DNA from: Eubacteriales bacterium
Lineage (GTDB): Bacteria; Bacillota; Clostridia; Oscillospirales; CAG-272
Length of the DNA: 64,000 nt
Assembly: GCA_045128515.1 (NCBI GenBank)
Contig: JBGVRO010000027.1
Location: 1,148-65,147 of the forward strand
Reading direction: 5' to 3'
Below are positions 40,502 through 44,001 of this stretch, piece by piece (within the stretch, counting starts at the first letter, position 1; each line of letters begins with the position of its first letter). The notes below the pieces were generated by a model, which worked only from the letters and a program-made list of their open reading frames with translations, was not told the origin of the DNA and made no database searches. A program made the position numbers and the translations under genes.

Positions 40502-41275
40502 ATGAAAATACTCGTTATCGGAGATGTTACGAGTCCGTCTGGAATTGAACATCTCAAAAGAAATCTCTGGAAATTCAGAGAGACAAACAAAATTGATTTT
40601 TGCGTGGTGAACGGAGAGAATGCCGCATTCGTTACAGGTATTTCACCCGAGCTTGCCGAGGTGCTTTTACGTTCGGGAGCCGATTGCATCAGCGGTGGAA
40701 ATCACACTCTTAGAAATAAACGTACTTATACCTACCTTGACGATACTGCCGAGATACTTCGCCCCATCAATTTTGGTGATGAAGCGCCCGGACACGGATA
40801 TGCTATACTTGATTCAAACGGCTACCGTATACTTGTGATCAACGCGCTTGGCAGAGTTAATATGAATCCTACCTTGGATTCTCCCTTCACACATATCGAC
40901 AGACTTCTTCGCGATGAGGCAGGTAATTACGATTTTGCCATCCTCGATATTCATGCGGAGGCTACCGGTGAGAAGCTGGCGGTTGGTTATGCCTACGACG
41001 GCAGGATCAATATCGTTTTCGGCACTCACACCCACGTGCAGACCGCCGATGGCAAGATCTTACCCAACGGAACGGGTTATATCAGTGACGTTGGAATGTG
41101 CGGTGAGAGTGAGGGTATTCTTGGAATGGATCCCGAGGTTGTTGTTGCTCGTATGCGTACAAATCTTCCTCACAGCTTTAAGGCTTCGTCTGGCAAATGC
41201 CATGCCGACGGAGTAATATTTACACTTGACAATTCTACCGGCAGGGTGATTAAGGTCGAGCCTGTTGGATTTTAA
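40502..41275 (+). CDS. ymdB: YmdB-family metallophosphoesterase
   Basis: IGDV, NGENAA, GGNH, DIHAEATGEK, GTHTHV and SDVGMCG motifs; follows rny. Confidence 0.93.
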   Translation: MKILVIGDVTSPSGIEHLKRNLWKFRETNKIDFCVVNGENAAFVTGISPELAEVLLRSGADCISGGNHTLRNKRTYTYLDDTAEILRPINFGDEAPGHGYAILDSNGYRILVINALGRVNMNPTLDSPFTHIDRLLRDEAGNYDFAILDIHAEATGEKLAVGYAYDGRINIVFGTHTHVQTADGKILPNGTGYISDVGMCGESEGILGMDPEVVVARMRTNLPHSFKASSGKCHADGVIFTLDNSTGRVIKVEPVGF

Positions 41276-41389
41276 TATGTCAGCTTCGGCTGACGTGATA
41301 TGACGGCAGAACCGTCGTGATATGCGGTTTTTACCGCGTGATATGTTGCCTTTAGACAACGTGATATTTTTGCTTCGCAAGAGTTATAA
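41272..41389 (+). repeat. Array of five unrelated hairpins joined by a constant GTGATAT linker
   Basis: GTGATAT at 41295, 41317, 41338 and 41361 (degenerate at 41272, 41383); each intervening segment is self-complementary. Confidence 0.9.
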
Positions 41390-41411
41390 CAGAAAGGAGG
41401 AACAGGGAAAA

Positions 41412-43286
41412 ATGGAGCTTAAAACCAGAGTTGCCGTTATCGGTGCAGGTCACGCCGGCATTGAGGCTGCCCTCGCATCTGCGAGAATGGGAATAGATAC
41501 GATATTGTTTACTACCAACCTTGATGCTGTTGGTAATATGCCCTGCAATCCCTCTATCGGTGGTAGCGCAAAGGGACATCTTGTATTCGAAATCGATGCT
41601 CTCGGTGGCGAGATGGGATATGCGGCAGATCTTGCTACAATTCAGTCGCGTACGCTTAATCTTGGTAAGGGAGCTGCCGTTCACTCAAAGCGAGTACAGG
41701 CAGACAGAGCCGAATATAAAAAGGTAATGAAGCGCACCCTTGAATCCGAAAAGAATCTCCGCCTTATTCAGGCAGAGATCGTTGATATTCTTACCGAGGA
41801 GATAAACGGTAAAGCACAGGTTACGGGTGTTGTTACCGCACTTGGCGAGATATGGGAGGCGAGCCGTGTAATTATTGCAACGGGTACATTCCTTGACTCT
41901 AAAATTTTTGTTGGAGATAAGGTATTCTCTGCAGGTCCTGACGGACTTATGCCTGCGGTTGGTCTTTCTGCATCGCTTTCCCGACTTGGACTTACTCTCC
42001 AGCGCTTTAAGACAGGTACACCTGCAAGAGTGCATTTAAGATCGGTCGACGTTGACTCTCTTGAAATGCAGCACGGTGAGGAAGAGCCCATTCCTTACTC
42101 GGTGAGAACGGTTAAAAAGCCTGTATGTGAGGTAAATCTTCGTCCCTGCCATATCGTATATACTAATGCCGATACCCATAGCATAATCCGTTCCAATCTT
42201 GACCGAAGCGCCATGTATTCGGGTAATATAACCGGAGAGGGACCGAGATACTGTCCTTCTATTGAAACCAAGCTTGTTCGCTTTGCCGACAAGGAAAGAC
42301 ATCAGCTTTTCGTCGAGCCCTGCGGTCTTGATACCGACGAGCTTTATATTCAGGGCTTCTCCACCTCTATGCCCACCGACGTGCAGTATCAGATGCTTCA
42401 TAGCCTTTCGGGCTTTGATAAGGCGGAGATCATGCGTTATGCTTATGCTATAGAGTATGACTGCGCAGATCCCACAGAGATGTATCCTACTCTCGAGTTT
42501 AAGGCGGTAGGCGGTCTTTACGGAGCAGGTCAGTTTAACGGCACGTCGGGATATGAGGAAGCCGCGGCACAGGGACTTGTGGCTGGAATCAATGCCGCTC
42601 TTGCTGAAAAGGGTGATGAACCTATGATACTTACTCGCTCGTCCTCTTATATCGGTACGTTGATCGACGATCTTGTGACAAAGGGCGCTGCCGAGCCTTA
42701 TCGAATGATGACCTCGCGTAGCGAATACAGACTTCTTCTCCGTCAGGATAATGCTGACGAGAGATTGACTCCTATCGGATACAGAGTAGGACTTATCGGT
42801 GAGGAGAGATATTCTGCTTTTCTTGAAAAAAAGAAGGCCATTGAGGACGAGATAAAACGCCTTGAAAAAACCGTTGTTCCCCCGTCAGAGAGAAATAACG
42901 AGATTCTTCGCAGTCTTTCATCTGCTGAGATAACAACAGGTATTAAGCTTGCAGAGCTGCTTCGCCGTCCCGAGCTTTCATATAAGGCACTTTTAGAAAT
43001 GGATCCTGAAAGACCCAATCTTCCTTCTGCAGTAGTCAGAACTGCCGAGATACAGGTTAAGTATCAGGGATATATCAAGCGCGAGATCTCCGAGGTAGAA
43101 AGACAGAAAAAATTAGAGGATAAAAAGCTTCCTATTAATATAGAATATAAAGAGATACTTGGTCTGCGACTTGAGGCAGCTGAAAAGCTTGACAGAATTC
43201 GCCCTATGAATATCGGTCAGGCATCGCGTATCAGCGGAGTCAATCCTGCAGACATAAGTGTGCTGCTTATATATCTAAATAAGTAA
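41412..43286 (+). CDS. mnmG: tRNA U34 modification enzyme MnmG/GidA
   Basis: IGAGHAG, MPCNPSIGG, RFKTGTP, GPRYCPSIE and AGQFNGTSGYEEAAAQG motifs; ATG 41412. Confidence 0.98.
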   Translation: MELKTRVAVIGAGHAGIEAALASARMGIDTILFTTNLDAVGNMPCNPSIGGSAKGHLVFEIDALGGEMGYAADLATIQSRTLNLGKGAAVHSKRVQADRAEYKKVMKRTLESEKNLRLIQAEIVDILTEEINGKAQVTGVVTALGEIWEASRVIIATGTFLDSKIFVGDKVFSAGPDGLMPAVGLSASLSRLGLTLQRFKTGTPARVHLRSVDVDSLEMQHGEEEPIPYSVRTVKKPVCEVNLRPCHIVYTNADTHSIIRSNLDRSAMYSGNITGEGPRYCPSIETKLVRFADKERHQLFVEPCGLDTDELYIQGFSTSMPTDVQYQMLHSLSGFDKAEIMRYAYAIEYDCADPTEMYPTLEFKAVGGLYGAGQFNGTSGYEEAAAQGLVAGINAALAEKGDEPMILTRSSSYIGTLIDDLVTKGAAEPYRMMTSRSEYRLLLRQDNADERLTPIGYRVGLIGEERYSAFLEKKKAIEDEIKRLEKTVVPPSERNNEILRSLSSAEITTGIKLAELLRRPELSYKALLEMDPERPNLPSAVVRTAEIQVKYQGYIKREISEVERQKKLEDKKLPINIEYKEILGLRLEAAEKLDRIRPMNIGQASRISGVNPADISVLLIYLNK

Positions 43287-43296
43287 AGGTAGAAAA

Positions 43297-44001
43297 ATGA
43301 ACGAACAGCATTCACGCACCGAGATGCTTATTGGCACAGAGGGTGTTGAAAAATTACAGAATTCACGGGTCATTATCTTCGGCGTTGGCGGTGTGGGTGG
43401 CTATGCTGCCGAGGCGCTTGCGAGAGCAGGGGTAGGCTACATTGAGCTTGTTGACTCCGACCGTGTGGCACTGTCAAATATTAACAGACAGATTATTGCC
43501 ACCCATAGCACTGTTGGTATGTATAAGACCGAGGCTATGCGCGATCGCATTGCTACCATTAACCCCGAGTGTCAGGTGGTTTGCCACAGCATTTTCTTTG
43601 ATAATGACACAAAATGTCAATTTGACTTTACAAAATACGACTATATCATAGATGCAATCGATTCGCTCGGTGCAAAAATTGAGCTTATTGCATCTGCCTA
43701 TGAGGTAGGTACACCGATTATTTCGGCTATGGGTGCAGGCAATAAGCTTGATCCCACACTGTTTGAGGTGTCGGATATTTCCAAGACCACCGTTTGTCCT
43801 CTTGCACGCGCAGTAAGGATTGCTCTGCGTAAAAGGGGTATCAATCATCTCAAGGTGGTTTACTCGAAGGAAGAGCCTGTTGTTCCCCCTGAGGTGAGTG
43901 ACGGTGAAAGACGTCGCGTTCCTGCAAGCATCTCCTTTGTTCCTTCTGTAATGGGACTTATCCTCGCCGGCGAGGTTGTAAAGGATATTGCAGTTAAATA
44001 A
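43297..44001 (+). CDS. tcdA: ThiF-family tRNA threonylcarbamoyladenosine dehydratase
   Basis: GVGGVGG, SNINRQ, IDAID, MGAGNKLDP, CPLA and VYSKE motifs. Confidence 0.88.
   Translation: MNEQHSRTEMLIGTEGVEKLQNSRVIIFGVGGVGGYAAEALARAGVGYIELVDSDRVALSNINRQIIATHSTVGMYKTEAMRDRIATINPECQVVCHSIFFDNDTKCQFDFTKYDYIIDAIDSLGAKIELIASAYEVGTPIISAMGAGNKLDPTLFEVSDISKTTVCPLARAVRIALRKRGINHLKVVYSKEEPVVPPEVSDGERRRVPASISFVPSVMGLILAGEVVKDIAVK

Follow-up and report, generated by a model that had tools for sequence, protein, structure and literature searches.

A hairpin-word array between ymdB and mnmG in a Clostridia genome, probably a gene-less arm of a Gut-1-type repeat family

The array between ymdB and mnmG

In a 64,000-nucleotide stretch of contig JBGVRO010000027.1 from a Eubacteriales bacterium (hereafter the window; positions are counted from its first letter), the spacer between the genes for a YmdB-like phosphoesterase (ymdB) and MnmG (GidA) is occupied by a regular array. 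Reading of the sequence at 41272-41389 gives five unlike hairpins linked by four identical GTGATAT words, which fill the intercistronic gap of 136 nt. An earlier note on this DNA had described five different hairpins with an invariant linker at a pitch of about 22 bp, within an rny-ymdB-mnmG gene order. Both descriptions were confirmed, the first by the sequence, the word starts (pitches of 22, 21 and 23 nt) and the RNA fold, and the second by Pfam, which identified the neighbours as RNase Y, YmdB and MnmG. The features of the locus are as follows.

40502-41275, + strand: ymdB, YmdB-like phosphoesterase (open reading frame list; Pfam PF13277, E 4e-88)
41272-41278, + strand: left degenerate word TTAATAT, five of seven letters as in GTGATAT (sequence reading)
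41273-41275, + strand: ymdB stop codon TAA, inside the left degenerate word
41279-41294, + strand: hairpin 1, GTCAGC-TTCG-GCTGAC, 6 bp, loop TTCG (sequence, RNA fold)
41295-41301, + strand: first GTGATAT word (pattern search)
41302-41316, + strand: hairpin 2, GACGG-CAGAA-CCGTC, 5 bp, loop CAGAA (sequence, RNA fold)
41317-41323, + strand: second GTGATAT word (pattern search)
41324-41337, + strand: hairpin 3, GCGGT-TTTT-ACCGC, 5 bp, loop TTTT (sequence, RNA fold)
41338-41344, + strand: third GTGATAT word (pattern search)
41345-41360, + strand: hairpin 4, GTTGCC-TTTA-GACAAC, six positions with one C.A mismatch at 41349/41356 (sequence)
41361-41367, + strand: fourth GTGATAT word (pattern search)
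41368-41382, + strand: hairpin 5, TTTTGC-TTC-GCAAGA, 6 bp including one T.G at 41369/41381 (sequence)
41383-41389, + strand: right degenerate word GTTATAA (sequence reading)
41393-41400, + strand: ribosome-binding site of mnmG, AAAGGAGG, intact and common to the array-less site L230 (described below)
41412-43286, + strand: mnmG (GidA), true start ATG at 41412 (Pfam PF01134, E 3e-148)

The array is real and far beyond chance: the expectation for four exact 7-mers at a pitch of 21-23 nt in the window is about 5e-11. When folded as RNA, the + strand forms exactly the five hairpins (-49.9 kcal/mol, z -4.1), and none of 200 shuffles was as good; the fold of the - strand is weaker in absolute terms (-40.3 kcal/mol) and has a z of -5.4. 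The gene after mnmG (43297-44001) is of the ThiF family by Pfam, at a place where rsmG is often found in Firmicutes.

A lineage-specific insertion

YmdB was found in 40 of the 41 genomes of the genus searched, and 330 nt past ymdB were read in 29 loci, leaving out locus L035 because its contig ends inside ymdB. The ymdB-mnmG synteny was mostly preserved among the 29 loci, and in none of the 28 belonging to other species did the 330 nt contain a hairpin-word array. In addition, a metagenome contig (L230) could be aligned through the spacer, the final 176 nt of ymdB being 68% identical and the initial 109 nt of mnmG 81% identical. This was the one contig recovered when metagenomes were scanned with the mnmG start as pattern; the scan with the ymdB 3' end had no match. 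The alignment of the window with L230 contains one 110-column gap, corresponding to window positions 41276-41385 (+ strand), that is, the inserted array. In L230 the stop codon is followed directly by AAAACTGAAAGGAG...ATG, and the insert in the window falls precisely after the ymdB stop codon and ahead of the intact mnmG ribosome-binding site.

The array is a 110-nt lineage-specific insertion. A conserved mnmG leader was considered as a candidate and ruled out by the 28 array-less orthologous loci and the empty site. The same absences speak against the earlier suggestion of a role tied to the rny-ymdB-mnmG transcript, and we consider it reasonably likely that the array has no mnmG-specific function.

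Similarity to the Gut-1 RNA motif

When the array was compared with Rfam 15, the sole meaningful match was Gut-1 (RF01706), with an E-value of 3.7e-7 over the full 77-position model; in the whole window, no Rfam 15 family reached its gathering score. The consensus of the Gut-1 model consists of three hairpins linked by GUGAAAU, in which AU...GU closes each stem with a three-base GAA between. Three hairpins and four word positions of the array match this model, the word being one letter off (A to U), and GUGAUAU words also occur in the Gut-1 seed alignment, as given in part of the supplement of Weinberg et al. (2010) (Genome Biol 11:R31, PMC2864571). In portions of the same paper, Gut-1 is classed as certainly RNA and not cis-regulatory, with 43 examples from human gut metagenomes only, and as a noncoding RNA unaffiliated with mRNAs (Weinberg et al., 2010; PMC2864571). 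Rfam types it as 'Gene; sRNA' (small RNA). The earlier note had allowed that an already described Rfam family would remove the novelty of the array. This holds in part: the array matches Gut-1, yet at 41.8 bits against a gathering score of 50. Taken with the insertion described above, it is highly likely that the array is a member of a Gut-1-type repeat family and a lineage insertion.

Dispersal in the source genome and its relatives

The source genome (2.0 Mb, 78 contigs, 98% complete) contains 39 Gut-1 matches at E<=10, including 29 at E<1e-3 and four above the cut-off (61.3, 56, 53.8 and 52.1 bits). The pattern GTGAWAT-N12-20-GTGAWAT occurs 16 times, compared with once in a backwards control, and a regular-expression census of hairpin chains yielded 23 in the genome versus three in the reversed genome. 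In total, there are about 30 hairpin-word arrays in this genome. The word-agnostic census of hairpin chains placed GTGATAT at six loci, the ymdB-mnmG locus included, and revealed other flavours of the word, namely TCGATAT, TGAAAT, TGAAT and GTGAAGT. One GTGATAT array (C62:41261) has a reverse arm at 41387.

Only the word is constant among these copies. The 16 inter-word segments picked by GTGAWAT spacing only are all distinct in sequence, and 14 of them have a terminal stem of at least 4 bp (1000 shuffles averaged 0.35 such segments and never exceeded 3). A blastn comparison among arrays gave a single short match (52 nt at 83%). In our genome set (the source genome and relatives), Gut-1 matches at E<=1e-3 were present in 28 of 41 genomes. 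Within the genus, 19 of 24 relatives had them, as did 8 of the 16 genomes that represent other families of the order; up to 39 were counted per genome, many at contig ends. Among species-representative genomes, at least 124 stretches with three GTGAWAT words were found, and 49 of 80 of those loci contained strict hairpin arrays. Among the matches listed, array-bearing records were labelled mostly as Clostridia metagenome-assembled genomes (MAGs) of Oscillospiraceae, Acutalibacteraceae, Ruminococcaceae and Christensenellaceae from ruminant and human guts, and a few as Akkermansia(ceae) or Bacteroidaceae. Sequencing runs labelled as bovine gut contain the window stretch itself.

The search for further (GTGATAT-stem-loop)n arrays, which the earlier note had put forward as a check, was thus positive at about 30 places in the genome and in many relatives. 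The note had also supposed that selection acts on structure plus linker. The pattern of any hairpin plus a fixed word is indeed kept in some 30 arrays and in relatives, and it could reflect either selection or some generating process.

Several copies have features of their own. Three five-hairpin arrays of the source genome have a TGAAT linker (C9:43202-43304, C10:29211-29311 and C26:21189-21290), and no four-helix-bundle gene (see below) adjoins the TGAAT flavour in that genome. A conserved stretch of about 200 bp lies upstream of three TGAAAT composites (C46:600-800, C46:1530-1710 and C40:33580-33760) and contains the word ATAAA(A/T)TGAACGA three times. A very long array of some 20 hairpins is suggested in one relative (G023, C68:8828-9292), where seven Gut-1 matches overlap along about 460 nt.

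The comparison of copies also bears on the earlier proposal of phased double-stranded DNA sites two helical turns apart, under which each word would be a site for a conventional regulator of mnmG. The pitch of 21-23 nt at the locus and the invariance of the words would suit such sites. On the other hand, the pitch across other copies ranges from about 17 to 27 nt, no promoter was called at the array, orthologous loci lack it, and the pairing of the inter-word segments has no role in this model, which we regard as highly improbable.

Test for an HUH or RAYT transposase partner

A dispersed hairpin repeat could also be of the REP/BIME kind, moved by an HUH (IS200-like, RAYT) tyrosine transposase that reads hairpin plus word on single-stranded DNA, as the earlier note had suggested. 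The arrays are dispersed, intergenic and multi-copy, many of them lie at contig ends and many form inverted pairs, all of which would be expected for such a repeat. However, the transposase domain Y1_Tnp (PF01797) had no match in the 98%-complete source genome. It was present in 16 of the 41 genomes, and none of the 18 Y1_Tnp loci examined in relatives had an array within 1.5 kb. Moreover, 11 of the 19 genomes with at least eight Gut-1 matches lacked Y1_Tnp.

In a MAG contig labelled as Akkermansiaceae (L055), a Y1_Tnp gene (76 bits) does lie between arrays. This gene has its own pair of inverted repeats, about 65 bp long, GC-rich and unlike the arrays, and is inserted in the middle of a composite, so that it looks like a separate element that landed there. 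Taken together, we find an HUH transposase as the mover of these arrays hardly credible. The region in question (L055:2400-5053) holds seven arrays in 2.6 kb, with tandem two-arm composites of about 250 bp, a PF05635 gene and the Y1_Tnp gene.

A four-helix-bundle protein gene beside the arrays

In a Pfam scan covering 85 of the 173 listed open reading frames that flank arrays in other genomes, genes of the family PF05635 ('23S rRNA-intervening sequence protein') were found to adjoin arrays in L054, L064 and L067; such a gene adjoins arrays in L055 as well. The source genome contains four PF05635 genes. Every one of them is accompanied by arrays, and the word differs from gene to gene:

C21: tRNA gene, hairpin with a T run, ATGAAAT arm, ATTTCAT arm, then the PF05635 gene
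C47, 8650-9200: ACTTCAC arm, PF05635 gene, GTGAAGT arm; in an operon, between two co-directional host genes
C3, 48591-49150: ATATCGA arm, PF05635 gene, TCGATAT arm
C17: ATATCAT and ATGATAT arms about 200 nt upstream of the PF05635 gene

The arm-gene-arm layout on C47 is a circular permutation of the tRNA-linked arm-arm-gene layout. The flanks on C3, judged by eye, presumably represent a T-box leader with a terminator and valS; going by the look of these flanks, a unit under riboswitch control seems to have received the cassette.

The protein encoded on C21 matches the 'four helix bundle protein' family TIGR02436, and among solved structures it is closest to PDB 2RLD (E 1.5e-25). In an excerpt of PMC10053308, PF05635 is described as resembling, in sequence and structure, Avd, a protein of diversity-generating retroelements (DGRs); in a passage of PMC11270868, the domain is called functionally uncharacterized and encoded by intervening sequences (IVSs).

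Among the 41 genomes, which as kin are not independent, PF05635 was present in 25 of the 28 that were Gut-1-positive versus 2 of the 13 that were Gut-1-negative. Among the 16 genomes of other families, six had both, two had Gut-1 only (one or two matches each), none had the protein only and eight had neither. We examined 30 PF05635 loci, including the C21 locus of the source genome. A tRNA gene was upstream on the same strand in 20, and Gut-1 matches (E<=0.01) lay beside the gene in 11. Strict hairpin chains with a constant word were detected at 10 of the 30 loci, compared with 1 of 30 ymdB loci (the array studied here) and 1 of 29 Y1_Tnp loci, and phased 6-mer runs with nearby reverse-complement runs at 11 of 30, compared with 0 of 30 and 0 of 29, respectively. 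Detectors built on the GA[AT]AT expression miss other flavours of the word (7 of 30 PF05635 loci), and word-agnostic detectors together with the Rfam model reach 20 of 30.

The flavour of the word follows the phylogeny of the protein. In a quick maximum-likelihood tree of 36 proteins, 15 word states required 15 changes over 30 labelled rows, a count that leaves out L226 (an over-long open reading frame). The four PF05635 proteins of the source genome fall into four clades, each together with proteins of other genomes, some from other families, that have the same word. As far as sequence comparison goes, this correspondence means that the gene and its arrays are passed on together, and it is in keeping with, without proving, a protein that recognises the word. 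We conclude that the Gut-1 family is very likely tied to the four-helix-bundle gene at the family level. In a full-text search of the literature on Gut-1 and on PF05635-type proteins, no paper linking the two was found.

The GTGATAT word accompanies the protein clade of L200, L064, L067, L207 and L227. No protein of this clade was found in the source assembly, where tblastn with four such proteins returned only the four genes of other clades. Either these arrays are independent of the protein, or the gene has been lost, or it lies in the unassembled 2% of the genome. As the source genome lacks a GTGATAT-clade protein, the ymdB-mnmG array is probably without a dedicated reader there.

Neither the second arm nor the gene is present at the ymdB-mnmG locus: sequence reading and pattern search revealed no ATATCAC run adjoining the array, and by Pfam its neighbours are YmdB and MnmG rather than a PF05635 gene. 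Because of these neighbours, and because the four PF05635 genes of the genome are on other contigs, the array is regarded as a gene-less arm and not a cassette.

Transcription and strain variation

Strains and RNA libraries were compared on assembled contigs only, from which strand, ends and level are not readable. The array is covered by RNA-library contigs from two studies: X15 record 8 extends from 41258 past 42200, hence into mnmG, and X17 record 24 spans 41245-41406. At depths of 3-7, no weight is carried by the lack of a contig over 41270-41405 in a third RNA run (X16), nor by contig ends at 41213, 41230 and 41269. Very probably, the array is carried on the ymdB-mnmG transcript, with DNA carry-over in the RNA libraries being possible. 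At position 41406, 6 nt before the mnmG ATG, a contig starts in one RNA study and another ends in a second (depths 4-7), a weak hint of an RNA end.

A DNA run of another study also spans the locus with the array present. It has four differences inside the array, and the words are unchanged in all of them. The C.A mismatch of hairpin 4 becomes C-G (41356 A>G), the T.G of hairpin 5 becomes C-G (41369 T>C), one extra T is present in the loop of hairpin 3, and 41376 C>T falls in the loop of hairpin 5.

Nothing resembling a promoter was called at the array, nor was an intrinsic terminator (a G+C-rich hairpin followed by a T run) called between 41270 and 41411, and the RNA contig continues into mnmG. 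These observations concern the reading of the array as a free-standing small noncoding RNA gene, which is how Rfam and, in the portions cited above, the 2010 paper classify Gut-1, and the composite copies of the source genome do end in a strong hairpin with a T run. Yet at this locus neither a promoter-like nor a terminator-like site was called, the array fills a 136-nt gap inside an operon, and one RNA contig runs on into mnmG. It is very unlikely that the array is such a gene.

RNA or DNA element

In 278 distinct units selected by word spacing only, the inner stems comprised 1247 Watson-Crick pairs, 27 G.T/T.G, 52 A.C/C.A and 195 other cells, so that wobble types are not enriched over other non-pairs, a pooled count that cannot separate RNA from DNA where both arms share one transcript. 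The T.G at the second stem position (233 of 278 units) is part of the fixed word. Orientation relative to co-directional flanking genes was seven sense and four antisense in the source genome, and five and six at 11 other loci, giving 12 to 10 over 22 loci, with gene calls that are crude (longest or best-scoring open reading frames). An apparently strong sense bias (12 to 4) had disappeared in this stricter count restricted to co-directional flanks. On strand bias, which the earlier note had proposed to test, the outcome is thus an orientation that is about random.

Both orientations occur next to each other within complete elements. Between the arms and the gene, L200 and L213 have a TG-extended -10 promoter-like site, and in L200 a tRNA terminator precedes the arms; in L214 neither a promoter-like nor a terminator-like site was called. 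A 'ladder of four-way junctions' has no support from folding, since the minimum-free-energy RNA folds of two-arm composites pair no left-arm words with right-arm words. The wobble counts, the orientation, the two-arm layout and the placement of the arms in L200 and L213 lean to an element acting at the DNA level, and none of them is decisive.

The main alternative at the RNA level is that the array is a processing or stability module of the rny-ymdB-mnmG operon, with RNase Y sites or an exonuclease barrier through which expression of ymdB and mnmG would be tuned or uncoupled. In E. coli, REP hairpins protect the mRNA that lies upstream of them, and cleavage by RNase Y has been reported after G near structures. 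In agreement with such a module, RNA-library contigs cover the array, one of them bridging into mnmG, the + strand forms five stable hairpins, the start of the array is 3 nt past the ymdB stop codon, the mnmG ribosome-binding site stays unobstructed, the strain changes spare the structure, and the contig ends at 41406 may hint at an RNA end. However, the array is absent in all 28 other species and in the empty site L230, and the element is scattered over unrelated operons in about random orientation (12 to 10 at 22 loci). In addition, the complete copy in L200 lies between a terminator and a promoter-like site, the stems have no G.U enrichment, and the contigs show neither RNA ends nor strand. 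We consider a module of this kind unlikely, although less so than the other alternatives discussed here. The multivalent protein scaffold proposed earlier survives in altered form, with the four-helix-bundle protein as candidate reader and DNA as a likelier substrate than this mRNA.

Interpretation

On balance, we favour the view that the array is a solo, gene-less arm of a Gut-1-type hairpin-word repeat family. The complete element consists of two opposed array arms beside a four-helix-bundle gene, mostly behind a tRNA gene and its terminator. In this model, the fixed word may be the address for the cognate four-helix-bundle protein, and the hairpins of free sequence would serve to set the words apart or display them, probably at the level of DNA (single-stranded or extruded) and not as a signal on the host mRNA. 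The process that mobilises the cassettes may also disperse gene-less arms or leave them behind, and the arm between ymdB and mnmG would most likely be a tolerated passenger that is part of the transcript without terminating it. That the protein reads the word is suggested by the linkage, the phyletic co-occurrence and the match of word to clade; we hold this step to be tentative, if quite possible.

Several observations weigh against this view. The Gut-1 score of the array is below the gathering score, and the array is transcribed, very stable as RNA and begins 3 nt after a stop codon, while the structure-sparing strain changes fit selection at the RNA level as well as at the DNA level. The three automatic detectors pooled found arrays at only 20 of the 30 PF05635 loci; inspection by eye of 18 printed spacers added three, and seven of the 30 had none. 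The source genome has six GTGATAT arrays and no protein of the GTGATAT clade, and the match of word to clade could be plain co-inheritance of neighbours, with kin sharing labels. We know of no mechanism of movement for a four-helix-bundle protein, and the limits of the wobble and orientation counts given above also belong here.

A broader version of the model, which is speculative and rather doubtful as a whole, would be that the arrays are address labels for an Avd-like four-helix-bundle family, one clade per word, and that the elements are integrase-less mobile cassettes that dock behind tRNA genes and, as IVSs, in rRNA, seeding gene-less arrays into operons. If so, a resident or incoming protein of the matching clade could, by way of solo arrays, influence ymdB, mnmG and other host genes in trans.

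If the view we favour is correct, the ymdB-mnmG array is one insertion of a genome-wide repeat, as opposed to an element dedicated to the control of mnmG or RNase Y. Gut-1, which has been in Rfam since 2010 as a small RNA without function or partner, would be recast as a dispersed repeat of several flavours, about random in orientation relative to genes, with stems lacking wobble enrichment, and tied to the orphan family PF05635, a relative of Avd. Two orphan families would then share one testable question, namely whether each protein binds its own word and in which form of nucleic acid. For annotation, caution is advisable, in that such arrays in operon spacers should not be taken as locus-specific riboregulators.

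Comparison with known systems

In CRISPR arrays, too, constant segments alternate regularly with variable ones, with a period of tens of bases. Here, in contrast, the constant part is a 7-nt linker and the variable part is self-complementary.

REP and BIME repeats with their RAYT proteins, as in E. coli and Pseudomonas, are closer in several respects, being short intergenic hairpin repeats in many copies, often in inverted pairs, located in operons just past stop codons and co-transcribed. They differ in that the sequence of the REP hairpin is conserved, whereas here only the inter-hairpin word is, and in that a RAYT partner was sought and not found.

The IVSs of 23S rRNA encode S23p, as in Leptospira and Coxiella, and such open reading frames are located within stable-RNA genes or next to them. 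The gene that partners the arrays belongs to the same protein family (PF05635), is likewise found beside stable-RNA genes (tRNA genes at 20 of 30 loci) and is bracketed by inverted repeats. Unlike an IVS, the ymdB-mnmG locus has no such gene, and to our knowledge no IVS element has been described with hairpin-and-word arms.

PF05635 resembles Avd according to the excerpt cited above (PMC10053308). Avd forms four-helix-bundle oligomers that bind nucleic acid. In contrast to DGRs, the surroundings of the arrays showed neither a reverse transcriptase nor a template or variable repeat.

The closest known relative is the Gut-1 RNA motif itself. Both consist of short hairpins of free sequence with a fixed GUGA(A/U)AU word, have A-U and U.G at the foot of the hairpin and come from gut Clostridia. 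The array studied here has five hairpins, compared with three in the model, and it belongs to a dispersed, many-copy repeat with several flavours of the word, a protein-gene partner and a distribution over MAGs from both ruminant and human guts.

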